Source: Candidatus Dadabacteria bacterium (lineage in GTDB: Bacteria; Desulfobacterota_D; UBA1144; Nemesobacterales; Nemesobacteraceae). From it: 64,000 nucleotides of DNA. Of the stretch, positions 545-14,005 are shown piece after piece. Position 1 is the stretch's first letter. Each line of letters opens with the position of its first letter. The translations under genes and the position numbers were made by a program. The notes under the pieces are model-generated. The model ran no database searches. It saw only the letters and a program-made list of their open reading frames with translations, and was not told the DNA's origin. Location of the stretch: contig JAJDTG010000022.1 in assembly GCA_022827275.1 (NCBI GenBank), positions 129,455 through 193,454 of the forward strand, given 5' to 3'.

Positions 545-632
545 TTCGCATGTATTAACCAAGAGGCCACCATGTCTATTGCTGATTTTCAGACATAAGT
601 CTTTAATCTAGGTAATAATTTATAATTTCCAA

Positions 633-1694
633 ATGAATGATCAGAGCGAGAAAAATTCTGTGAATTTATATGATTATCTTTATGTTGATTTGGAAAAAGT
701 AATTTCTCTATACAGTCAACTAACAGGTGGTGTAGTAGAATTAATAGAAACGCAGTTGGAAAAGGGTTCTGCATTTGAACATAAAGGGAGCCTTGACTTG
801 AAATTGTTTAAATATGGTGCAGGGGGTGCAAAAGAAGAGAAAGAGCAAGACAAGATAACTGTTAAACCACATCATGCCTTATTGCAAGAATTGGAGGAAA
901 AACTTTCTTCTTCAGGCTATTTATTGGACCTAGATAGATTAGGAGATGGAGAAACATTAAAAGACCATAATGTAAGAAGTTCTCTCAAGAAAGTGTTATG
1001 TGTGAAATGTAAAGGCAGAATTGTAATTGAAGATTATGAAAGAATGAAAAGTATTGGCCAAGCTTTTCCTGAAATTGTGAAGCTAATTAGCATGAGCAAC
1101 ATAGAAGCTGTCAAAGGAACCCCTGAATATCAAGAATTTGAGGCGAAAATGAAAGAACTTGAAAATGTTGAGGGAAATAGAAATCAAAAAAGTGCAGGAA
1201 AACAAAAAGCCAAGCGACTTCAGAAAGAACTTGATGAAATGCTTGCGACTTTTTCTGATATAGACAATGTGCCTCAATGGATTCTAGATGGTCTTGGGAC
1301 ATGGATTGATACTTTCCTGCCGAATATAACAAATATTCGCGTTTACCCTTTTCCTGGTCAACATGACGAACATATATTCGGACGTTTAGACGCATCGAAC
1401 TTCACTATATCCGACTCTACTGCATTTCATTTTACTTATGGTTCTTTTCCTACTGAAGAGTTTACTATGCTTGGCATTATCACGTCCGTGCCTTTGGATG
1501 AAGAGGAAACCTTCGTGCCACTAAAGGAGTTTGAGAAGGAGGACTTAGATGATAAGGAAAGCATTGAAAATGGGTTTCGCGGCTTGTTTAAGGGTTTTGA
1601 GGGTTTCGAAGCTATGATAAGGACTTGTCGTTATCCCAGAGTTCTAGTTCATCCTATTTTGATTTATCGAGAGACTTCACCTTGCAAAACTTGA
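633..1694 (+). CDS. Hypothetical protein (353 aa), first gene of the islet; no recognisable catalytic motif
   Basis: A 353-codon ORF in AT-rich DNA is very unlikely by chance. ATG at 633 lies 6 nt after a TATAAT hexamer (621-626). Stop is 29 bp before the GTG of the next gene. Central K/E-rich predicted coiled-coil (EAKMKELENVEGNRNQKSAGKQKAKRLQKELDEM). No TM segment or signal peptide seen. Confidence 0.75.
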   Translation: MNDQSEKNSVNLYDYLYVDLEKVISLYSQLTGGVVELIETQLEKGSAFEHKGSLDLKLFKYGAGGAKEEKEQDKITVKPHHALLQELEEKLSSSGYLLDLDRLGDGETLKDHNVRSSLKKVLCVKCKGRIVIEDYERMKSIGQAFPEIVKLISMSNIEAVKGTPEYQEFEAKMKELENVEGNRNQKSAGKQKAKRLQKELDEMLATFSDIDNVPQWILDGLGTWIDTFLPNITNIRVYPFPGQHDEHIFGRLDASNFTISDSTAFHFTYGSFPTEEFTMLGIITSVPLDEEETFVPLKEFEKEDLDDKESIENGFRGLFKGFEGFEAMIRTCRYPRVLVHPILIYRETSPCKT

Positions 1695-1723
1695 TTGGAT
1701 AAATATTTAAATTTTCTTCAACC

Positions 1724-4700
1724 GTGGATACAAAAAAACCTTTTCGGGGAAGTCTTTTCTCCAACGATTTCTTAAGCCAATCTATAGTCAAACTACCCGA
1801 CTGGAAGAATCTTGATTCCGAGTCAGTAGACAGATTTTACGAATCGCTGAAGGAAATATTCAACAAGTTTCCGGTTTCGGGTAAACCTAACGAAAGCCAG
1901 ACGGAAACCGATCTGGTCTGGCCCATACTGGAATGTTTGGGCTGGATCGCGAGTCTGCGACAGCAGAATCTTGCCGTAAAAGGAAGGCAGGATGTGCCCG
2001 ACGGCCTTCTATTTGCGGACGATGCGGCCAAGGAGCGGGCTAACGGTTTTGCGGAAGAATGGAAACGCTACCAGTTCGGTCTTGCGGTAGTTGAGTGCAA
2101 ACGATGGCTTCGACCGCTCGACCGCTGGTCAGGACTCCCTGATGAGGTGACGGCACCTTCAACGCAGATACTTCGCTATCTTCGACGAGTGGATGATCTG
2201 ACTTCGGGAAAACTCAGGTGGGGCATTCTTACCAATGGCGCGAGATGGCGGCTTTACTACCAGGGCGCCCGGTCGGTTTCCGAGCAGTTTCTGGATATTG
2301 ACCTCGGAAAGATATTGAATATTTACGATCGGGACGATGATTCGCCCGTTCTTTCCGAATCCGAGCGTCGCCACTGGCTTTGCGTGTTCGTTCTGATGTT
2401 CAGGCGCGAGGCCTTTCTTCCCGGCGCTGCTGATCCGCGCACGTTTCACCAGCGCTCTCTTGATGAAAGCAAGTTCTACGAAGAACGCGTCGCGGGCAAT
2501 CTCTCGGAACTGATTTTCGGCAAGGTTTTCCCTGAACTTGCCCGCGCTTTCGCCCTTGCTTCGCCCGGGGCCCCTTTGGACCAGGTGCGCGAGGCTGTCC
2601 TGGTTTTTCTCTACAGGCTTCTTTTCATTCTCTACGCCGAGGACCGCGAGTTGCTGCCCGTGCGCGATACGCGTTACGACGACTATGCCCTGCGGGATAA
2701 AGTGCGGGGGGATGTAGGACGACGCAAGGACGAGAATGATGTTTTTTCCAAAAAAGCGTCGAGATACTGGAATGCCATTGACGATCTCTGTCTCGCTATT
2801 GATCAGGGCGATTCTTCAATAGGGCTGCCGCCATACAACGGTGGCCTTTTTGACAGGGAGAGCACCCCGCTTCTTGAAGAAATCCGGATCGGAGACCAAG
2901 TTGTCGCCGACGTGGTTGATGCCCTTTCCTTTGAACAGACGGAGCATGGACGCCGGTATATCAATTACCGCGACCTCAGCGTCCAGCAGCTCGGGTCCAT
3001 ATATGAACGTCTTCTTGAATACGAACTCGCGCGGGGTGATGGTGAAATAGTCGTTCGCCCGAACATCTTCGCGAGAAAAGAATCGGGAAGCTACTACACT
3101 CCGGACGACCTAGTCGGTTTGATAATAAAGGAGACGATTGAGCCTCTGACGCAGAGATCCATGGATGAGTTTGAGTCCAGAATCGCGGAACTCGCCGAAA
3201 GCGGATTGTCCGAAGATATGAAAATCGGACTTCTGAAGGAAACCGATCCGGCGGAAAAGCTTCTCGAACTGAAAATCTGCGACCCCGCCATGGGTTCAGG
3301 GCATTTCTTGGTCAATCTCGTGGATTTTCTTACCGACAGCGTGATTGCGGCAATGGCCGACGCCGAGGCCGCGGTGGAAAACTATATATCTCCTCTAAAC
3401 GCGCGGATTGACAGGATTCGCAACAGGATTATGGCAAACGCGCAGAAGCGCAAGTGGAGCGTTAATTTCGAGCAGCTTGACGACCGTCACGTAATCAGGC
3501 GGATGGTGCTCAAGCGTTGCGTTTACGGAGTCGACAGAAATCCCATGGCGGTTGAGCTTGCCAAGGTGTCTCTATGGCTCCATACGTTTACGCCCGGGGC
3601 TCCCTTGAGCTTCATTGATCACCACCTGCGCTGCGGAAACAGCCTGTTCGGCATGTGGGTCAGGGATGGGGTGAAAAAGGCCGAGGAGTACGGAGGGCCG
3701 CTTCTGCTTCAAAAACCCATAGCGCGGGCTATTTCGACCGCGGCTCCCATGCAGATAATTGAAGGCCTGACCGATGAGGAGATATCCGAAGCCCACCGTT
3801 CCGCCGACATCTTTGACGGGATCAAGGAAGACACGGCGCCTCTGGATGCTTTTCTCTCGGTTGTGCGTGCCTTTGACTGGCTGAACATCAGGGATCGTGA
3901 CGACAAGAGCGCTCTCTATGCTTTTTTCGAGGGCATACTCGGCGACCCTGTCGACATTTCTCTGGGAGAGTCTGATATACAAAACGGGAAAACGCAGTCG
4001 GAGCGTTTTGCGGGGATTTTTGAAAAAGCGCGGGAACTTATCGAGGAAGAACGTTTTTGCAACTGGCAGGTGATGTTTCCGGCAGTATGGTCGGAGTGGG
4101 AGAGTTGTGGACTGCAGGGGGGTTTTGACGCGGTAATAGGGAATCCGCCTTGGGACCGGGTAAAACTGCAGCAGGTCGAGTGGTTTGCAACTCGCCGTCG
4201 TGAGATTGCCTTGGCGGTCCGGGCCGCCGACCGCAAGCACATGATCGTTGAGTTGGAGGAATCAGGTGACCCGCTAGCCGAAGATTTCAATGTGGCTAAA
4301 GAACGAGCGGAGCATGCGGCCCGTGTTGCCAGAACATGCGGCGATTATCCTTTGCTTTCCAGAGGTGATTTGAATCTCTATTCTCTTTTTGTTGAACGGG
4401 CTATGACTATCGTCAAACCTGATGGGATGGTAGGCCTCCTTACTCCCTCTGGAATTGCCTCTGACAAGACTGCTGCGAAGTTTTTCAAAAAAGTGGCGAC
4501 GGAAGGCAGATTAAAAGTACTCTACGATTTTGAAAACCGACGCACGCGTTTCAAGACCACACCCTTTTTTCCGGATGTGGATAGTCGCTTTAAATTTTGT
4601 GTTTTTGTCGCAAGTCCGTTGCCGATTCCTAGTCCAACTCAATGTGCGTTTTTCTTGCAGGATGTATCCGAACTCGAAGGTCAAGATTGCTGTTTCCCTA

Positions 4701-5809
4701 TGACTGCAGAGGACTTTGCGCAAGTCAATCCAAACACAGGGACTGCGCCGGTTTTTCGGTCTCGTCGGGATGCGGGATTGACGAAGGCAATTTATGAGCG
4801 TTCGCCTGTCCTGGTTGATCGATCCAGCGGTGAGGAAGTGAAAACATGGCCCGTGAAATATGTTCGTATGTTTGATATGAGCAACGACTCTGGTTTTTTT
4901 CGTACTCGCGAGGAACTTGAGGAAAGAGAGGGGGCCTACCCAGTTGGAGGCAACAAATTTGCCAGTCAGCTGGGTGAATGGGTACCGCTCTATGTTGGCC
5001 GCATGATCCATCAATTTGACCACCGAGCGGCTTCGGTGAAAGTGAATCCGGAAAGTCTTCACAATCCGGCGTTGAGTAGAGATATAACGTTAGCACAAAA
5101 AGCAGATCCCGATTTTGTTCCCACACCACAATATTGGGTTCATGCCGATAAAGTGGTTTTTCCAAGCGGTTTAGAGTGGGCCATAGCATTTCGTGACACT
5201 GCGAGGCCAACGGATGTCAGGACGATGATTGCCACTGTCGTTCCGTTCGTCGGATTAGGGAACAAAGCTCCTATTCTAACAGCGGAGGATCTCGAAATTT
5301 ATCGTCAATTTGCATCTTGCTTCACTGCTAATCTTAATACATTGCTTCTTGACTATGTGGTGCGTCAAAAGGTGCATGGTACTAATTTAAACTGGTATAT
5401 CGTTGAACAATTGCCTGTAATTCCTGTGGATCATTATGAAGCTACCCGTTTCGGTCCGAAAACAGCCAAGGAGATCATACGGGAAGCTGTGTTGGAACTC
5501 ACGTATACCGCCCACGATATGGCACCATTTGCCCGCGACATGGGTTATGTCGACCAGAACGGAAAAATAAAACCACCATTTCTGTGGGATGAGGAACGTA
5601 GACTGAATTTACGTGCCAAACTTGACGCAGTATTTTTTCACCTTTACGGAATTACTGACCGCAACGATGTGCGCTATGTTTTTTCCACTTTTCCAATAGT
5701 GGAAGCTCAGGAAATTAAAACTTACGGCACTTACAGGTCCCGTGAACTTTGCCTTGCATATATGAATGCGCTTGAATCAGGAGATCCTGATGCGAAGATA
5801 AGTTTGTGA
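1724..5809 (+). CDS. Type IIG-like fused restriction nuclease / gamma-class N6-adenine DNA methyltransferase (Eco57I / MmeI / PglX-like architecture), 1361 aa
   Basis: N-terminus has PDGLLF...(x)...VVECKRW, a PD-(D/E)xK-like motif (2000-2101). Also LLFILYAEDRELLP, YNGGLFD, SGSYYTPDDLV, DPAMGSGHFLV (motif I, from 3281), YGVDRNPMAVELAKVSLWL and VIGNPPWDRV (motif IV, NPPW at 4142-4153). ~500-aa C-terminal region with no MTase motif, a putative target-recognition part. GTG start; the frame only opens after the TAA at 1700-1702. Confidence 0.85.
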   Translation: MDTKKPFRGSLFSNDFLSQSIVKLPDWKNLDSESVDRFYESLKEIFNKFPVSGKPNESQTETDLVWPILECLGWIASLRQQNLAVKGRQDVPDGLLFADDAAKERANGFAEEWKRYQFGLAVVECKRWLRPLDRWSGLPDEVTAPSTQILRYLRRVDDLTSGKLRWGILTNGARWRLYYQGARSVSEQFLDIDLGKILNIYDRDDDSPVLSESERRHWLCVFVLMFRREAFLPGAADPRTFHQRSLDESKFYEERVAGNLSELIFGKVFPELARAFALASPGAPLDQVREAVLVFLYRLLFILYAEDRELLPVRDTRYDDYALRDKVRGDVGRRKDENDVFSKKASRYWNAIDDLCLAIDQGDSSIGLPPYNGGLFDRESTPLLEEIRIGDQVVADVVDALSFEQTEHGRRYINYRDLSVQQLGSIYERLLEYELARGDGEIVVRPNIFARKESGSYYTPDDLVGLIIKETIEPLTQRSMDEFESRIAELAESGLSEDMKIGLLKETDPAEKLLELKICDPAMGSGHFLVNLVDFLTDSVIAAMADAEAAVENYISPLNARIDRIRNRIMANAQKRKWSVNFEQLDDRHVIRRMVLKRCVYGVDRNPMAVELAKVSLWLHTFTPGAPLSFIDHHLRCGNSLFGMWVRDGVKKAEEYGGPLLLQKPIARAISTAAPMQIIEGLTDEEISEAHRSADIFDGIKEDTAPLDAFLSVVRAFDWLNIRDRDDKSALYAFFEGILGDPVDISLGESDIQNGKTQSERFAGIFEKARELIEEERFCNWQVMFPAVWSEWESCGLQGGFDAVIGNPPWDRVKLQQVEWFATRRREIALAVRAADRKHMIVELEESGDPLAEDFNVAKERAEHAARVARTCGDYPLLSRGDLNLYSLFVERAMTIVKPDGMVGLLTPSGIASDKTAAKFFKKVATEGRLKVLYDFENRRTRFKTTPFFPDVDSRFKFCVFVASPLPIPSPTQCAFFLQDVSELEGQDCCFPMTAEDFAQVNPNTGTAPVFRSRRDAGLTKAIYERSPVLVDRSSGEEVKTWPVKYVRMFDMSNDSGFFRTREELEEREGAYPVGGNKFASQLGEWVPLYVGRMIHQFDHRAASVKVNPESLHNPALSRDITLAQKADPDFVPTPQYWVHADKVVFPSGLEWAIAFRDTARPTDVRTMIATVVPFVGLGNKAPILTAEDLEIYRQFASCFTANLNTLLLDYVVRQKVHGTNLNWYIVEQLPVIPVDHYEATRFGPKTAKEIIREAVLELTYTAHDMAPFARDMGYVDQNGKIKPPFLWDEERRLNLRAKLDAVFFHLYGITDRNDVRYVFSTFPIVEAQEIKTYGTYRSRELCLAYMNALESGDPDAKISL

Positions 5810-5861
5810 GGTATAGATTTTCTGGAAGACGATAGAGTGGTAATGACTGAACATAATAAGG

Positions 5862-8800
5862 TCAATCCACTTGATTGAACCAAGGACCCATGTTGTTGGC
5901 GGTTCTCTGACCCAGAAAGTTTTTCTCAAGCTCTTTTTCCTTTTTATTCAGAGCACGTTTTATGTTCGATCGGTTGAGTTCAACATGAATCATTTTGAGA
6001 TCAGCAAAACTGTTTGAATTTTTTGCAGTATCTTTATCTCGGGATGTATATTTATATGTATCGATGCGACGGTCTGCCGAATGTAAAAACAATGCCCACG
6101 CAGCGTAGGCTTGGGCTGGATCTGGGGCGTCAAGGAATGCTTTCCACCAGTGTTTAGCACATGCCTCAATCCATCTTTGGCGTGCTGATTTCCAACGAAG
6201 GCTAGAATGAATCGTTTTCATTTCTCCCTCTGGCCAAGCACCGACAACTGGCAATTGATTGTTTTGTGTAAAGCCTGCCAAGATAATAGCTCGACGCTGG
6301 CGCCAACTCAATGGCGATGCTTGATCTTCACTGATTAAGGCATCAATCCAGTCGGCTTTGCCGTTGTATGATGCGGCAATTACAATATCAAATAAATCAC
6401 GATCGGTATGACAATTCTTCAATTCTGTTAACTCTTCTTGTAGTGCTGTTACCTCTGGCGAATCCGGCACTCGAAAGACCATATGCAGAAGATCTTCTAC
6501 ATCAGCGGCACCATAATATCGAGTTTCTAAAATCGTACGAAGAATTCGCCACAATTTAACTCCACGTTCAGGGTTGTGGATAAGTAAAGCTTCGCAAAGT
6601 GCAAGAAATGCTCCTTCAGCCAAGAGGATACGATGTATGAATTCAACTGTTGGATTAGATAGGTCGGCCAGCCATTTTTCAACGAAGTCCGAAGCATGAC
6701 AAAGAACAGGCTCAAAGTCCCTGTAATCAAAGTCTTTTAAATAGAGAATGGCGCCTGAACTATGTGCTTTAGGCATGAGAAATTTAGCGGCTCTAATAGC
6801 TTCATTCAACTTTTTGGTTCGAAGCTCGGAGTCGAAAATTTGCCGTAAATTCTCGACTTCGTTTGAAGGTGGTCGTAGCGCAATTGAAAACGAGCCCGGC
6901 GGGGATTTTTTTTTGAACCGGTCGACTGAAATGATTGAACCCGGGTCTAATTTTTTAATATCGTTTGTAATAAGCATCTGGTCCAACTCTTTGGCTGCTA
7001 GCCTTATCTCTCTTTGATTGGATCCACGTCGGCAAGCAACTTTCAAAAGAAGCCATGGTGCCAGTCGAGCTATCAACTTGTCAAAAGAAGAAGATAGCGT
7101 TGCCTCTGTAAGTGCAAGTGTTCCATAATGATTAACCCATAAATCCTTTTTCGGGTGCCAAGACCAATTGTTATTCTCAAGTGTCTTACCAAATCGTTTG
7201 GGGTTGGAGTGGGTCAGTATATTAAACGCAAGTTTACGAAGGTTCTCCTCTTGTCTTGCACAGTTTTCGATCCATGACCATGCGTTATCACTAAGTTTAA
7301 TCTTGGAATCCAACAACAGACTGAGCAGGTTGCATTTCTGTTTATATGAACCATTGGAGTAGCGAGAAATTAATTTGTCAATATCTTCCGATGTTGGAGT
7401 TAAGAGAATTTTAGTGAAATCGCTAGAGATGTATTTCAAATCTGCCTGGATTAACGTATCAAACTGTCCCTGTGCCCGCATATCTAAGACTTCCATAAGT
7501 AAAAGTCTGTTGGCAGTAATTGTTTCTTCATCATCATTGTTACTATAGTTGCTACTCAAACGCAATTTTCGTGCTGCGGTTGCTTCGGCAGTCGCAGTAA
7601 ACACAAAATGGTTTGTTGAACTTAATGCACACCAGTACCGAGACTCTGCTGAACAGGTCTCCATGCTTCTCATTTTTTGTCGTATAATATTTTGGAGAAG
7701 GTTTGAATTGAACCGCGCGAGAACTGGTTCGAGGGATTCAAGAAGAAAATCTTCTTCGGTTCTTGAACGGTGCCGACTCAGTTTCTTGACATCTATATCG
7801 GCTATTGCTTGCTCAACTTTCTTAATGAAGCTTTTAGGTGGTTGAAAGTCAGGGTCAAGCCATAGTTCTTCTGTTCTTTCAACCCGGAATTCTGGTTTTA
7901 TTTCTGTATTGTTGAGTACCGTTTCAGCATGTCGTTTTTCAAGAGGGAATAATTCTTTGCTAGGGTTCGCAAGATAATCTTTCTCGTAGCTGAACGCATG
8001 CAAGGATTCGGGATCAATAGATGCTGCTTTATTATCGTCTTCCTCCTGTCCAGTTAGCCGAAGCAGAAGTGCAGCGATGCGAGACGGAAGGTCTGGATGA
8101 ATGTGTGACTCAGGTTTTTGGCAAAGAACTGATTCTGATAATTTACGTAAAGTTTCTGCCGTCTCGTCGGGGTCAACTTCATTAAGAAGGCAGAGCCACT
8201 TCATGTCATTCCAGATTCTGCTAGTGCTGCGTATTGCAAATTCAATAGCCGCGGCTTTGAAGACTGGCTGAATTTCTGCTAGTGGGAATCCTTCAATAAT
8301 TGAAGGGACTGTAGATCTCAAAAAACTAGGATTATGGTTGACTAGTTCAATTTCTGTTTCTAAGATGTTAGTTCGTCCTGAAGAATCGGTTCCAATCAGT
8401 TTTCTGAAGTGTTCCGAGCGCCATTTTTCACTTTCTTTGTTGGCTTTTGGGTCAAAGTCAAGGGAGACTACGCACAGCCAGAGATACGTGCGTTTGATTA
8501 TAAGCGATAGGATTTCGGTGTTTGTTCTGGGGATTGTTCTCAGTGCTCTAACGGCCCAATTCCGTGCGGACGAGTAAACTCGACTGTTTGAATGCTCAAC
8601 GGCATCAAGTAATGCGTCGGGAAGATTGGATGCTAATCTAACAAGTTCTTTGCGATGCTCGTCAGGTACATTCTGGGTTTGTAGCCATGCCGTAACAAGA
8701 ACTCCGGAAGTTAGTGATTTTTTAGGATGGTCCTGTCCCACTAGAATGGATACTGCTGCACGTAAAATCTCTGCTTTTTTATCAAGACCTGAAATTGGGT

Positions 8801-10520
8801 CGAACCATTCTGTCAATTTGCTCTCTAATTTTTCAAACGTTGGTGAGTCTGCTTGATAAAGGTTGTCTAAAAGCAGAAGTCCTAAGGAATGTGCAAGAAT
8901 GGAAGGTATAATTTCAAAATTCCCTGACTCGTTACGTGTAGTGAAACGGCCGTCAATTATTTCACTTAGTCGTTGATAAACTTGATTTTCACTAAGATCT
9001 GAGCGTTCTAAAGTTTGGCCAAGAGACCTAGACGAAAACTCTCGTATGCCGCTCCTATGCTCTTGTGCGATTTCCCTTAGCCATTCTTTCCACTCGTTTT
9101 CGCTGAATGATTTCCCTGCCCGTTCACCCAAAGAATCTCGCCCATATTCCCAGAGTAGTCTGTGTATTGTTAACTCGCCTGGTTCAAGCAACTTTTCCCG
9201 CAATCTGATTACAAGCCTGAAGAGACGAGGATTCCGTGCGAGTTCAATAACATCGGGATGCAAATCGGCTCGGGTTAATTCTTCAAGTTTGAGCATCTGA
9301 TCAAGCTCTCCTTCAGGTTCTATATCGAAAGGTCCAACGTCAACATGTTTTGGTTTAAAGACAAGGTCACGAAATTTCGATAATCTCTCCTCAAAATAAT
9401 GATTACGCGTGCTGATAATCACTCTCACTCGCCCTATGAATTTTTCTTTCTGCAAAACTTTCAGAAGTTTTAACCATTTAACGGAAGGTTCTTGGTTTAA
9501 TCCGTCAAAGAAGAGGGTTAAAACAGGTCCTTCATCCATTGGACGTTTAAGCAGCCTATTTAGGCGGTGTAACCAATGTTTTGAATCTTGTACTTGGGTA
9601 ATTTCGTAGAGGCAATTAGCCAGTAATTCTTTCACGGTTGTTTCGGAAACATCGCCAGTTGGCATTGAGGATGAAGCTATAGTCAAAATGATTGGTTGAT
9701 TGTGCTTGTTATCAATTATCCAGTGGAGCGTTGCCCATGTTTTCCCCACACCCTCATATCCGACTACTGTGACCGGAGTTTCTTTTTCCGGGTTTTGCCA
9801 CCATGAAGTCAGTTCATTATGAACAGAGATACGTTTAATTTTTTTGGCTTCGGTTCCGCCAGCAGTGTTCTGTCCGAGTTCAGCGGTTGCTTCTTGTGGA
9901 GAGTTCCAGATCTTTTCGAGTTTTTCGTGAGATGCTTCTCTTAATATTTCAAATCCCAAGCACCAAGATTGCAAATCACGGTTTAGCTTTTCAATAGTGT
10001 CTCCTAAAACTGGTCTAAGCTTCCGTGCTAATACTCCAGCTTCCTTCGAGAACTTCGACTCAACTATGTCAGGGGCATAAGCGCACAATCCAGCAAGCGG
10101 TGTCAACTCATTACCCTTTGGCCAATCAAGAATTAATATAGGTACACCTGTTTCTTTGCCTTTAAGAAATAGTGAGTGTCGTATTTGCTCTGAGACACTA
10201 CCTGTTGTAATTAACACCCAAGCTTCTAGAGCTTCATCTCGGTCTAATGCTTGGTCAATTTCCCCGCGTAATTCTCTTTCATTAAGTTTCCTGGAATCAC
10301 TGTATTTTTTGCATTCTAAGCGAAACCGTCTACCTTGTTGTCCTGCCGGACCAGCATCTGCGCCATGCTGAAAACCTTTACTGGCTACAGTTATAGGTAT
10401 ATCAAGAAGGTGGCTTAGCAGAGAGGATACGAGACATTCGAATTTGAACGCATCTCCACCATTTTGAAGTTCACGCTTAAGTTCTTCCTGAAGATTTATA
10501 TTTTTTCTGCTAAGAGGCAT
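5862..10520 (-). CDS. STAND/NACHT-type P-loop NTPase with N-terminal Mrr-like PD-(D/E)xK nuclease domain and ~1150-aa helical C-terminal region (Avs / bNACHT-like antiviral candidate), 1552 aa
   Basis: N-terminus has GFQHGADAG...FRLECKKY, a D...ExK Mrr_cat-like pattern (aa 53-71, 10308-10364). Walker A is GYEGVGKT (aa 254-261, 9738-9761). Walker B is VLTLFFDGLNQE (aa ~333-344), followed by RVIISTRNHYF (NACHT-like hhhTSR). The rest is long, helix-rich and Leu-rich with no enzyme motif. Confidence 0.8.
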   Translation of the reverse strand: MPLSRKNINLQEELKRELQNGGDAFKFECLVSSLLSHLLDIPITVASKGFQHGADAGPAGQQGRRFRLECKKYSDSRKLNERELRGEIDQALDRDEALEAWVLITTGSVSEQIRHSLFLKGKETGVPILILDWPKGNELTPLAGLCAYAPDIVESKFSKEAGVLARKLRPVLGDTIEKLNRDLQSWCLGFEILREASHEKLEKIWNSPQEATAELGQNTAGGTEAKKIKRISVHNELTSWWQNPEKETPVTVVGYEGVGKTWATLHWIIDNKHNQPIILTIASSSMPTGDVSETTVKELLANCLYEITQVQDSKHWLHRLNRLLKRPMDEGPVLTLFFDGLNQEPSVKWLKLLKVLQKEKFIGRVRVIISTRNHYFEERLSKFRDLVFKPKHVDVGPFDIEPEGELDQMLKLEELTRADLHPDVIELARNPRLFRLVIRLREKLLEPGELTIHRLLWEYGRDSLGERAGKSFSENEWKEWLREIAQEHRSGIREFSSRSLGQTLERSDLSENQVYQRLSEIIDGRFTTRNESGNFEIIPSILAHSLGLLLLDNLYQADSPTFEKLESKLTEWFDPISGLDKKAEILRAAVSILVGQDHPKKSLTSGVLVTAWLQTQNVPDEHRKELVRLASNLPDALLDAVEHSNSRVYSSARNWAVRALRTIPRTNTEILSLIIKRTYLWLCVVSLDFDPKANKESEKWRSEHFRKLIGTDSSGRTNILETEIELVNHNPSFLRSTVPSIIEGFPLAEIQPVFKAAAIEFAIRSTSRIWNDMKWLCLLNEVDPDETAETLRKLSESVLCQKPESHIHPDLPSRIAALLLRLTGQEEDDNKAASIDPESLHAFSYEKDYLANPSKELFPLEKRHAETVLNNTEIKPEFRVERTEELWLDPDFQPPKSFIKKVEQAIADIDVKKLSRHRSRTEEDFLLESLEPVLARFNSNLLQNIIRQKMRSMETCSAESRYWCALSSTNHFVFTATAEATAARKLRLSSNYSNNDDEETITANRLLLMEVLDMRAQGQFDTLIQADLKYISSDFTKILLTPTSEDIDKLISRYSNGSYKQKCNLLSLLLDSKIKLSDNAWSWIENCARQEENLRKLAFNILTHSNPKRFGKTLENNNWSWHPKKDLWVNHYGTLALTEATLSSSFDKLIARLAPWLLLKVACRRGSNQREIRLAAKELDQMLITNDIKKLDPGSIISVDRFKKKSPPGSFSIALRPPSNEVENLRQIFDSELRTKKLNEAIRAAKFLMPKAHSSGAILYLKDFDYRDFEPVLCHASDFVEKWLADLSNPTVEFIHRILLAEGAFLALCEALLIHNPERGVKLWRILRTILETRYYGAADVEDLLHMVFRVPDSPEVTALQEELTELKNCHTDRDLFDIVIAASYNGKADWIDALISEDQASPLSWRQRRAIILAGFTQNNQLPVVGAWPEGEMKTIHSSLRWKSARQRWIEACAKHWWKAFLDAPDPAQAYAAWALFLHSADRRIDTYKYTSRDKDTAKNSNSFADLKMIHVELNRSNIKRALNKKEKELEKNFLGQRTANNMGPWFNQVD

Positions 10521-10757
10521 GGCAGTGTGGTAATTCTATTTACAGCGGAGTTCATAGAGGAATTATTGCTTTTTTCTCAGTTGAATTATGATAATTAAAC
10601 CGAACAGTTATTGCGAGTTGGAAAATTAGTAACCACGAGATATTTTATTCTTGATTTTTTTTGCGAAATTAGTACCCACTTAGAGGCGAAGCGTATTCTC
10701 GGGGAATTTCCATCTAACTACTGCAGAATTTACAAAGTAACCACGAAGATTCCCATG

Positions 10758-10786
10758 TTGCCTGTCAGCTTGTTATTAAGTATATA
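10758..10786 (+). promoter_or_regulatory. Candidate sigma70-type promoter of carB (TTGCCT-17 nt-TATATA)
   Basis: TTGCCT at 10758-10763, 17-nt spacer, TATATA at 10781-10786, about 30 nt upstream of the carB ATG. Sequence pattern only. Confidence 0.35.
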
Positions 10787-10816
10787 TTTGCAACCTGTTG
10801 CAAGCTTTTCCGTTCC

Positions 10817-13800
10817 ATGCCCAAGCGAACTGACATAAAAACCATAATGGTCATCGGTTCCGGTCCGATAGTCATAGGACAGGCCTGCGAGTTCGATTAT
10901 TCGGGCACTCAGGCGTGCAAGGTACTGAAAGAAGAGGGCTACAGGGTGGTTCTGGTAAACAGCAACCCGGCCACCATAATGACCGACCCGGACTTTGCCG
11001 ACAAGACTTACATAGAGCCGCTCGTTCCCGAAATACTGGAAAAAATAATAAAGAAGGAAAAGCCCGACGCCCTTCTGCCCACAATAGGCGGACAGACGGC
11101 CCTTAACCTCGCAGTTTCGCTTGCCGAATCAGGCGCGCTCGAGCGCCACGGCGTGGAACTCATAGGCGCAAAAATCCCTGCCATAAATAAGGCGGAGAAC
11201 AGGGATCTTTTCAAAAAAGCCATAGCTGACATAGGTCTTGAGGTGCCGAGAAGCGGCATCGCGCATAACATGGAAGAGGCCTGGGACGTCGTGGAGGAAA
11301 TAGGGTTCCCGGTCATCATACGGCCTTCTTTTACCCTCGGGGGAACCGGCGGAAGCGTCGCCTACAACAGGGAGGAATTCCAGGAGTTCGCCAAGGCGGG
11401 AATCGAAAGCTCTCCGGCAGACGAGATACTCATAGAGGAATCCATAGTGGGGTGGAAGGAGTTTGAGTACGAGGTGATGCGGGACCACATGGATAACGTC
11501 GTCATAATCTGCTCCATAGAGAATTTCGACGCCATGGGCGTTCACACGGGAGACAGCATAACTGTTGCTCCCGCGCAGACCCTTACCGACAAGGAATACC
11601 AGCATATGCGCGACGCGTCCATAGCGATAATAAGGGAAATCGGCGTTGAAACCGGCGGCTCTAACATCCAGTTTGCCGTTAACCCAAAAGACGGGAGGAT
11701 GATGGTAATAGAGATGAACCCGAGGGTTTCGCGAAGCTCAGCGCTTGCCTCAAAAGCCACCGGGTTTCCAATCGCCAAGATAGCCGCGAAGCTTGCGGTC
11801 GGCTATTCGCTTGATGAGATCTCAAACGACATAACGAAATATACCCCCGCGTCTTTCGAACCGACGATAGATTACGTTGTGGTGAAAATACCCAGATTCA
11901 CTTTTGAGAAATTTCCGCAGACAAGCCCGACCCTCACCACACAGATGAAATCCGTGGGGGAAGCCATGTCCATGGGGAGAACCTTCAAGGAGTCACTGCA
12001 GAAAGCGATGAGATCTCTTGAGATAGATTCCTACGGTTTCGAGAAGATGTCTGATGACCCCGAGGAAGTGAGGGAGAAGCTCAGGGTTCCTTCTCCGCGG
12101 CGGCTCTGGTACATAGCCGATGCGTTTCGGCTGGGCATGGAGTTGGAGGAAATCTACTCGATTTCTCATGTGGACCCTTGGTTTCTTCGGAACATAAAGC
12201 AGATTGTCGATTTCGAGTCGGATATTGCGAAGGACGGGCTTAGCCACGAGACCATACTCCAGGCCAAGCGTTACGGTTTTTCGGACATCGAGATCGCCAG
12301 GATTCTTTCCACGGAAGAAAGGGAAGTGAGGGATTTCCGCCTGCGCGAGGGAATCGAACCTGCTTTTAAGATGGTTGATACCTGCGCTGCTGAGTTCGAG
12401 GCCTACACGCCTTATCTCTACTCGACTTTCGAGAGCGAAAGCGAAGCGCTTCCCACGGACAGGAAAAAAGTGGTGATACTCGGCGGGGGGCCGAACCGCA
12501 TAGGCCAGGGCATAGAGTTTGACTACTGCTGTGTGCATGCGTCTTTTGCGCTCCGGGAAGAAGGGTACGAGGCCATTATGGTTAACTGCAACCCCGAGAC
12601 CGTGAGCACGGATTACGACACCTCGGACAGGCTTTATTTCGAACCGCTTACGCTTGAAGACACTCTGGCTCTTATAAGAAGGGAAGATCCTTGGGGAGTC
12701 ATAGTTCACCTTGGAGGCCAGACCCCACTTCGCCTGGCACTCGCGCTTGAAGAGCAGGGGGTGAGAATAATAGGAACTTCCCCAGAGAGCATAGACCTTG
12801 CCGAGGACAGAGACAGGTTCAGGAAACTCGTTTCGGATCTGGGACTTCTTCAGCCCCAAAGCGATACCGCTAGAAGCGAGGGGGAAGCCATTGGCATAGC
12901 CCGCGAAATAGGATATCCGGTCATGGTCCGCCCGTCCTACGTTCTGGGCGGCCGTGCCATGGAAATAGTCTACGACGAGGAATCTCTTCGGACCTATATA
13001 CGGGAAGCCGCAAGCGTTTCGCCGAATCACCCGATACTGATAGACAAGTTTCTGAAGGATGCGAATGAAATCGATGTGGACGCGGTTTGCGACGGGAAAA
13101 CCGTTGTTGTGGGAGGGGTGCTTGAGCACATAGAGGAAGCGGGGGTTCATTCCGGAGACAGCGCGGCGATTCTGCCGCCGTTTTCGATGGAACCTGAAAT
13201 TGTCGAGGAAATAAAATCCCAGACGAAAAAACTCGCCCTCTCTCTGGATGTAAAAGGACTTGTTAACATCCAGTTTGCGGTAAAGGACGGGAAGGTCTAC
13301 ATAATCGAGGTAAATCCAAGAGCCAGCCGCACCGTTCCTTTCGTGAGCAAGGCCATAGGGGTTCAATTGGCCAAAATAGGGACCAAGATTATGACGGGAA
13401 AATCTCTTGAGGAACTCGGCTATACGGAGGAAATCGTCCCTGAGCACTACTGCGTAAAGGAATCGGTCTTTCCTTTCGTCAAGTTCCCGGAGGTTGACAC
13501 GATTCTGGGCCCGGAGATGAAATCGACCGGCGAGGTAATGGGAATTGCTCCCGACCTTGATCAGGCGTTCGCCAAATCACAGATCGCGGCCGGCAACAGC
13601 CTTCCTTCAGACGGCGTGGCCTTCATAAGCGTGAAAGACGAGGATAAGTCCGACAAGATGCTTGATATAGCCCGGAGGCTCAGCGATATAGGTTTTGATA
13701 TAATGGCTACCGGGGGCACATCTGAATTTCTCAATAAAAATGGTATATTTTCCCGAACGGTGAACAAGGTTAAGCAGGGCCGGCCCCACATAGTCGATCA

Positions 13801-14005
13801 CCTTAAAAACGGTGAGGTGCAGTTGGTTATAAATACCACTTTTGGGAAAAAGGAAATCGCGCAGTCATATTCGATAAGAAGAACCGCGCTTGTAAACAAT
13901 GTTCCTTATTTCACCACCCTTGCCGGTGCGGTCGCCGGAGTCGGTGCTATCGAGGCCTTGGTGAGAATCGGTCTCGACGTAAGGGCTTTGCAAAGCTACT
14001 ATTAA
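10817..14005 (+). CDS. carB: Carbamoyl-phosphate synthase large subunit
   Basis: 1062 aa. [35 protein letters not shown]..., duplicated ATP-grasp halves (second half [23 protein letters not shown]) and a C-terminal MGS-like domain. Confidence 0.97.

Follow-up and report, generated by a model that had tools for sequence, protein, structure and literature searches.

In the Avs4 system (EcAvs4, PDB entry 8dgf), a single chain of 1534–1541 residues combines a central STAND (signal transduction ATPases with numerous domains) nucleoside triphosphatase (NTPase) with a large, all-helical C-terminal sensor, and the portal protein is the trigger. The N-terminus of Avs4 is reportedly an Mrr-like nuclease of the PD-(D/E)xK type. 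For SeAvs7, the apo form was described as an ADP-bound, autoinhibited monomer, in which the sensor is clamped upon target binding; ATP is then bound through Thr/Lys of Walker A, Asp of Walker B and the sensor-1 Arg. Tetramerisation and assembly of the nuclease are driven by the binding of the nucleotide and not by its hydrolysis. In bNACHT25, the PD-(D/E)xK active site is required for defence (mutation D48A) and sensing depends on the host DnaJ. Here, a gene with a comparable layout is described in a 64,000-nucleotide stretch of Candidatus Dadabacteria DNA (contig JAJDTG010000022.1, positions 129,455–193,454; hereafter, the window). The gene is located at 5862–10520 on the minus strand and is a complete open reading frame (ORF) with an ATG start; the nuclease-like domain, the STAND module and the putative sensor are encoded in one protein of 1552 aa followed by a stop codon. 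The characteristics of this protein, of its homologues and of its genomic surroundings allow us to assume, with a probability of about 0.7, that it acts on its own as an antiviral pattern-recognition protein of the STAND (NLR-like) type, belonging to the Avs/bNACHT kind, with a proposed nuclease-activating mechanism. Such a sensor–effector had been suggested in an earlier note made from the sequence of the window, and this suggestion is supported by the fold match with Avs4 and other STAND proteins, the conserved catalytic and nucleotide-binding residues, the occurrence of the gene as a stand-alone unit in defence contexts and the NACHT matches of divergent relatives.

Modeling of aa 1–700 using AlphaFold2 led to a model with a predicted local distance difference test score (pLDDT) of 77.8. 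When this model was compared with the PDB using Foldseek, EcAvs4 was the first match (E = 5.5e-8), and the alignment extended over 682 columns of 700, including the nuclease. It was followed by Dark, MalT, RPP1, NLRC4 and CED-4 (E < 1e-3) and by NAIP5 (E = 1.1e-3), and generic AAA+ proteins appeared later. The motifs quoted in the earlier note, namely G53-A-D55-A-G...F66-R-L-E69-C-K71-K72, GYEGVGKT (254–261), FFDGLNQ (337–343, with D339) and VIISTR (367–372), are indeed present in the protein.

The P-loop nucleotide-binding domain of the STAND module occupies aa 246–400 (9321–9785; this and all the other parts of the gene are on the minus strand) and was recognized through a sub-threshold NACHT match and Foldseek. 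Its Walker A motif, GYEGVGKT (aa 254–261; 9738–9761), contains G254, G257, G259 and K260, none of which varies among the 21 divergent members of the family (23–47% identity). In the Walker B motif, LTLFFDGLNQE (aa 334–344; 9489–9521), D339-G340 is invariant and N342-Q343 replaces the acidic pair of NACHT proteins; N342 is present in 19 of the 21 members, and position 343 is occupied by Q in 13 and by E in 8 of them. The sensor-1 strand VIISTR (aa 367–372; 9405–9422) ends with R372, which was found in 21/21 members and is a putative gamma-phosphate contact by analogy with Arg395 of SeAvs7. The ATP-contact residues of SeAvs7 have equivalents in K260/T261, D339 and R372 of the window protein, and K260, D339 and R372 are invariant in 21/21. 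Because the acidic pair is replaced by N-Q, this NTPase probably serves as a switch that binds the nucleotide but hydrolyses it weakly or not at all.

The nuclease-like domain is connected to the NTPase by a helical linker (aa 141–245; 9786–10100) with an invariant R230 and W240-W241. The region following the P-loop domain (aa 401–700; 8421–9320), delimited by the model and by conservation, comprises helical domain 1, a winged-helix region and a second helical domain. In the model, it contains helices at 405–523, a beta hairpin at 527–537 in the winged-helix region and then more helices. Helical domain 1 has the motif A428-x-x-P431-R432-L-F. By analogy with SeAvs7, the ADP-sensing His could be H453, which is conserved in the context T-I-H-R-L-L-W-E-Y-G-R-D, or H544. 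Judging from its Walker A (GxxxxGK[ST]) and B (hhhhD) motifs and the sensor-1 Arg, the protein belongs to the STAND NTPase superfamily, and the predicted helical and winged-helix extension, together with the fold likeness, agrees with this.

The N-terminal domain (aa 1–140; 10101–10520) is a putative effector with a restriction-endonuclease-like (PD-(D/E)xK, Mrr-like) organization, as indicated by the model and by conservation. The order of the modelled elements is alpha, alpha, beta (43–45), beta (54–56), beta (66–71), alpha (81–94), beta (100–105), alpha and beta. In this model, the topology corresponds to a restriction-endonuclease-like core, in which the second strand carries D55 and the third E69-x-K71. 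The putative catalytic core Q51-x-G53-x-D55 ... E69-x-K71-K-Y73 (aa 51–73, QHGADAGPAGQQGRRFRLECKKY; 10302–10370) lies within the 50-residue segment that shows the highest conservation (aa 51–100, 80% identity). Q51, G53, D55, E69 and Y73 are invariant in 29 diverse N-termini. It was also important for the earlier proposal that the nuclease-like residues be conserved among homologues, and this was found to be the case for D55 and E69, each of which is present in 19 of the 21 divergent members. The nuclease motif, written as a regular expression, was recognized in 63 of 69 full-length representatives.

Two divergent members, P0281 and P0286 (25–26% sensor identity), carry an unrelated N-terminal region of ~215 aa that looks helical from its sequence and contains no nuclease motif and no Pfam match; this may reflect the replacement or loss of the effector in one subclade. 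Another member, P0148 (1908 aa), has an extra N-terminal extension of ~470 residues ahead of the nuclease domain, which could be a true fusion or a gene-calling artefact.

The C-terminal part of the protein (aa 701–1552; 5865–8420) is a putative sensor predicted to form a large irregular alpha-solenoid. The model of aa 641–1552 (pLDDT 83.7; predicted template modelling score 0.84) is almost entirely alpha-helical, with irregular helix lengths and two small hairpins. The earlier note had described more than 1100 further helix-rich residues lacking TPR, WD40 and LRR repeats, and this description proved to be accurate, as no Pfam match to these repeats was found in the >1100 C-terminal residues even at E ≤ 10. 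The sensor had also been called unusually long, which did not hold, given the 1534–1541 residues of the Avs4 chains in 8dgf. A comparison of the model with the PDB revealed generic alpha-solenoids only (E about 5e-4, TM score about 0.2), namely the HEAT/ARM proteins SF3B1, Kap123/Kap121, importin-beta, CAND1, condensin and designed armadillo proteins. No Avs, NLR or bNACHT sensor was present among these matches. Thus, the suggestion that the sensor is possibly novel stands with respect to solved structures. Structural mimicry of the sensor by viral proteins was considered and rejected, as nothing significant was found for the C-terminal model among the predicted viral structures of BFVD.

One segment of the sensor is strongly variable and is the only notable length polymorphism. 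It is an insert of ~80 residues (aa 1191–1270; 6711–6950), modelled with low confidence and containing a small beta hairpin. The insert is absent from 43 of 120 members (mean length 1477 aa without it versus 1556 aa with it) and might determine specificity or have a regulatory role.

A word-indexed search yielded 458 homologues of the window protein. The best 120 of them are all 1430–1650 aa long, share 50% identity or more with it along their whole length, and have no precomputed Pfam domain. The homologues originate from Candidatus Dadabacteria (the closest, 78–84%), Gemmatimonadota, Nitrospinota, Latescibacterota, Xanthobacteraceae, Gallionella and others. An exhaustive search with aa 401–1552 revealed 1027 representative clusters (50% identity) at E ≤ 1e-3, including 296 at E ≤ 1e-30. 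Down to 25% identity, nearly all full-length matches have 1490–1580 aa and alignments that begin near residue 400, which argues that the sensor is passed on jointly with the NTPase instead of being shuffled; this co-inheritance persists to 24–25% identity. As far as can be judged from the alignments, the architecture of the family is fixed at ~1550 aa across about 1000 clusters at 50% identity, and the number of homologues and their conservation place the observation far beyond chance.

Two apparent exceptions were examined. Matches of a plasmid protein to aa 27–654 only had raised the suspicion of sensor swapping, which was rejected: BLASTP showed that this Sphingobium protein (WP_228167503.1) is a full-length relative with 24% identity. 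Swapping of the N-terminus, suspected from matches with "76% coverage", was rejected as well, the cause being the insertion or deletion of ~80 aa in the sensor.

The distribution of the family is patchy across many phyla (57 loci in species-representative genomes). Culturable hosts with members of the family include Pseudomonas sp., Stenotrophomonas sp., Stutzerimonas stutzeri, Bradyrhizobium spp., Azospirillum oryzae, Nitrosomonas spp. and Sedimenticola selenatireducens. Two divergent paralogues (L052 and L053, 32–33% identity to the query) were found about 2 Mb apart on OZ241875.1, which is the chromosome of one metagenome-assembled genome.

The neighbourhoods of the gene were analyzed for 47 of the 57 loci. 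No ORF family was found in more than 4 of the 47 loci, and those recurrences were within one genus. The idea of a conserved partner gene was therefore rejected, also for the convergent type IIG enzyme and the DUF6414 gene of the window, as neighbours differ between loci, and the STAND gene is a stand-alone single-gene unit. The three nearest neighbours at each locus included type I restriction–modification (RM) subunits, type IIG enzymes, DRT, GajB, SoFic, pAgo with SIR2-APAZ and MADS, as well as several PADLOC candidate systems, HEPN, HipA, Fic, Schlafen/AlbA_2 and ArdC. At one locus, the neighbours were SIR2_2, MNT/HEPN, PIN and a transposase; another contained Shedu SduA_C, patatin-TPR-S, TIR and prophage remnants. 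The mobilizable-plasmid locus of the Sphingobium relative contained VapBC and AAA/RloB.

In the window, the gene lies in an island of ~10 kb (interval 545–10816) bounded by thiC (83–544) and carB (10817–14005). In four related genomes, the flanks of the island are 94–98% identical, while the STAND protein is 77–82% and the type IIG enzyme 75–80% identical. The STAND gene stays adjacent to carB in these genomes while the other occupants change: one island (L006) contains a type I RM system instead, and another (L001) contains extra genes, including MNT, a T4 endonuclease IV-like gene and a gene for a 1004-aa protein of unknown function. Thus, the thiC–carB interval is a variable defence-island hotspot in the Dadabacteria/Thermodesulfobacteriota lineage (loci L001, L006 and L037).

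Carriage of the gene by a phage or a discrete mobile element was rejected, since no phage genome carries a homologue and neither a tRNA gene nor flanking repeats were found at the window island. On the Azospirillum oryzae plasmid NZ_CP054617.1 (L065, locus 2676–12665), a member of the family is located directly downstream of a gene for a 1735-aa hypothetical protein. IS66 elements bracket this pair, which suggests transposon-mediated mobility at that locus.

Since this anatomy matches that of single-chain antiviral STAND proteins, for which SeAvs7 and bNACHT25 are precedents, the following mechanism may be proposed. In the resting state, the C-terminal solenoid of ~850–1100 residues and the ADP-bound NTPase would hold the protein as an autoinhibited monomer. 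An infection-specific trigger, most likely a conserved phage protein and less likely an altered host factor, would bind to the solenoid and release the NTPase. ATP binding by K260/T261, D339 with Mg2+ and R372 would then lead to oligomerisation, and the N-terminal PD-(D/E)xK domains with D55, E69 and K71 would be brought together into an active DNase. The resulting degradation of DNA would abort the infection. Within this model, direct sensing of a phage protein is more likely than the guarding of a host factor or the sensing of nucleic acid.

A number of results weigh against the assignment of the protein to antiviral STAND proteins with an Mrr-like effector. The PADLOC and NCBIfam libraries, which presumably include models of Avs1–5, gave zero families for the window protein at E ≤ 1, and the family models of AVAST types 1–5 accordingly did not match it. 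A phmmer search of PDB chain sequences with the window protein gave nothing at E ≤ 10, and no relevant match to PDB sequences was obtained with the full-length or the N-terminal-only family profile. At the sequence level, membership in Mrr_cat (PF04471) is not established: the window protein did not match this model even at E ≤ 10, the model was seen in only 1 of 31 relatives (E = 0.013) and 1 of 21 (E = 0.063), and the hhalign comparison with one Mrr sequence from E. coli did not reach significance (E = 0.087, with a probability of less than 1%). The register of this non-significant alignment pairs GxD55 with GDGGID of Mrr, E69-C-K71 with Q-A-K and LITT with FITT. In addition, position 71 is occupied by K in 15, R in 5 and Q in 1 of the 21 divergent members, and Arg is unusual for an active PD-(D/E)xK site. 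Thus, the part of the earlier claim of an Mrr_cat-type pattern that concerns the PD-(D/E)xK topology and the conserved D55 and E69 was retained, and the part that would need a significant Mrr_cat or Mrr profile match was not.

The name NACHT, which the earlier note had given to the ATPase, fared similarly. The Pfam NACHT model (PF05729) matched aa 249–399 of the window protein with 18.0 bits (E = 0.0027), below the gathering score of 26.7. The signature that defines NACHT proteins, D[GAS]hDE (Kibby et al.), is not preserved in D339-G340-L341-N342-Q343, in which the small residue is present and the acidic pair is replaced. PF05729 was found in 9 of the 21 divergent members (E ≤ 0.1), one of which (P0286, 30.5 bits) passes the gathering score; the Sphingobium protein WP_228167503.1 reaches 26.6 bits and is labelled as a NACHT domain-containing protein in RefSeq. 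NACHT membership of the window protein therefore appears to hold only by transitive homology. When the whole protein was searched against Pfam, no family was found at E ≤ 0.01, and pieces of the protein gave only sub-threshold P-loop and NACHT matches. The earlier note had proposed to compare NACHT with other families by profile searches, and no non-defence STAND family was found in Pfam, PADLOC or NCBIfam in this way, the NACHT match of the window protein itself remaining sub-threshold.

Two further points against a receptor for phage proteins concern the sensor and the neighbours. In comparisons between phyla (Dadabacteria, Pseudomonadota, Latescibacterota and Gemmatimonadota), the identity of the sensor amounts to about 50%. 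Conservation to this extent is less typical of an arms-race receptor, and the ligand could also be a host factor or a nucleic acid. The association with defence neighbours is a qualitative one.

The high identity of the sensors makes it necessary to consider a guard-type protein of the same architecture and with the same effector, in which the solenoid monitors or incorporates a conserved host protein instead of binding a phage protein. Sensors that are about 50% identical across distant phyla and are never exchanged would fit a ligand common to all hosts, and bNACHT25 with DnaJ and SeAvs7 with EF-Tu provide precedents. However, Avs sensors for conserved phage folds (terminase, portal and capsid) are also conserved and horizontally spread. 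Since, moreover, no host partner is identifiable from the sequence and no partner gene is linked, a guard seems unlikely. It is clearly more improbable that the protein is a nucleic-acid-directed, NTP-dependent enzyme of a type IV-like kind on a STAND scaffold, in which DNA or RNA that is foreign or modified would be read by the solenoid and cleaved by the Mrr-like domain. The effector motifs are in register with those of Mrr, a modification-dependent nuclease, the NCBI record of one homologue carries the name "restriction endonuclease", and the STAND gene is located beside RM genes at several loci. Some HEAT-like solenoids bind nucleic acids, and the weak fold matches of the sensor include condensin and SF3B1. 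Nevertheless, the best fold matches of the protein are protein-sensing STANDs, Pfam searches revealed no recognisable DNA-binding domain (winged-helix reader, SRA, YTH, etc.), and the RM neighbours are not conserved.

The protein could also have no immune role and act as a STAND signalling or regulatory ATPase (MalT- or AfsR-like) or a selfish addiction gene, with a degenerate nuclease-like domain used for oligomerisation or DNA binding; this seems the least probable of the alternatives, by a small difference. MalT is indeed among the fold matches, some members have Arg at position 71, the nuclease motif is missing from two divergent ones, and the same carB-adjacent site is kept in four related genomes. 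In the 2026 survey of STAND proteins by Lee et al., defence clades are interspersed with non-defence clades, which would also be compatible with such a role. On the other hand, the protein contains no helix-turn-helix or other output domain, and about 90% of members, deeply divergent ones included, retain D55 and E69. The neighbourhoods are consistently defence islands or mobile elements, the distribution is patchy, and the STAND protein diverges faster than the flanking housekeeping genes. Taken with the fold and the neighbourhoods, these features favour an antiviral sensor–effector of the Avs/bNACHT kind.

A comparison with individual systems indicated that Avs4 is the nearest one, functionally and architecturally, as judged from the models. 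Avs4 has the same domain order as the window protein and nearly the same length (1552 aa for the latter). However, no sequence relationship between the two was detectable in the PADLOC, NCBIfam and PDB sequence or profile searches, and the Avs4 sensor, like every Avs sensor, was not retrieved by the C-terminal model. SeAvs7 and SeAvs3 differ in that their effector is a Cap4-type nuclease, in contrast to the Mrr-type domain of the window protein, and their sensors are TPR-like and bilobed, with no structural match to the window sensor.

bNACHT25 and bNACHT32 (clade 6, Kibby et al.) likewise combine a PD-(D/E)xK DNase effector, a NACHT-type NTPase and a helical C-terminus in one protein. They are, however, about 750 aa long with a short NCH1 (575–747), compared with a sensor of at least 850 aa in the window protein, and the clade 6 architecture (REase, NACHT and NCH1) was not found in the latter when length and architecture were compared using the coordinates of Table S1 of Kibby et al. 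Proteins of bNACHT clade 2 annotated there as "REase/Mrr_cat + NACHT" have the REase at about 16–133 and NACHT from about 214–289 to 703–737. These coordinates are nearly superimposable on the nuclease (1–140) and the NTPase module (about 246–700) of the window protein; no C-terminal domain is annotated in these proteins, and none of them has been experimentally characterised (Kibby et al.). None of six accessions of the window family was found in the accessible part of that table, and the genera of the clade 2 REase/Mrr_cat proteins are absent from the 57 genome loci of the window family. The family is thus probably sister to, or separate from, bNACHT clade 2, the comparison being one of domain coordinates and not of sequence.

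The window protein combines a putative effector, a STAND NTPase and a putative sensor of at least 400 aa in one chain near defence genes, and these are the features used for Avs as a functional kind by Lee et al. 2026. Their survey describes 589 STAND clades and 684 sensor clusters, including Avs7–24, among which the window family may be represented. The motifs of the family were absent from the 656 seed NTPase sequences accessible from this survey (one unrelated GKTWA match), and six accessions of the family were not found in the accessible text, both of which are uninformative on membership. A more far-reaching assumption, which we regard as tentative and somewhat doubtful, is that these proteins form a distinct Avs-like family of ~1000 clusters, mostly from environmental phyla. 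Its conserved non-TPR solenoid would recognise a trigger outside those of Avs1–24 and bNACHT, possibly a conserved host factor, and its NACHT-derived NTPase, lacking the acidic pair (DGLNQ), would be a pure binding switch. A universally conserved host-factor trigger would explain the identity of about 50% between sensors of different phyla.

As for the immediate surroundings of the STAND gene, its ATG start is backed by the aligned N-termini of homologues. No obvious Shine–Dalgarno sequence was found ahead of this ATG. The intergenic region that the STAND gene shares with the divergently oriented carB (10521–10816, 296 bp) is AT-rich and is presumed to contain the STAND promoter; no sigma-70-like promoter was called on the minus strand within it. 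On the other side, the gene converges with the type IIG RM-like gene, and the stop codons of the two are separated by 52 bp (5810–5861). The earlier note had reported this arrangement and seen no obvious terminator hairpin in the gap, and both observations were reproduced: no terminator-like site was detected in the 52 bp, and structure was not above that of shuffled controls (z = -0.5 and -0.4). A terminator between the type IIG RM-like and STAND genes was therefore rejected.

Besides the STAND gene, the island contains two genes on the plus strand. The first (633–1694) encodes a DUF6414 protein (PF19952, E = 5e-23) and ends 30 nt upstream of the second, a type IIG RM / DrmMI-like gene (1724–5809; 1361 aa) that matches the PADLOC model REase_MTase_IIG over the full length (E = 2e-69). 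The GC content of the DUF6414 gene is about 0.36, compared with about 0.5 around it. The gene is present only in the window island; because it was not found in the islands of related genomes that keep the type IIG gene, it looks like a recent addition.

The concept of nuclease–STAND–sensor proteins, already well established, is unchanged by these results. Judging from the searches, the window family is widespread and is named by none of the databases searched. Defence-annotation pipelines miss it because no Pfam, PADLOC or NCBIfam model exists for it, and this applies above all to phyla associated with sponges, soils and sediments, in which few systems have so far been tested. The culturable hosts make the family directly testable and, if the antiviral function were confirmed, a large family would be added to the bacterial NLR-like immune receptors. 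Since the sensor is modelled confidently and has no solved counterpart, the identity of its trigger would widen the known sensing range of bacterial STAND proteins.

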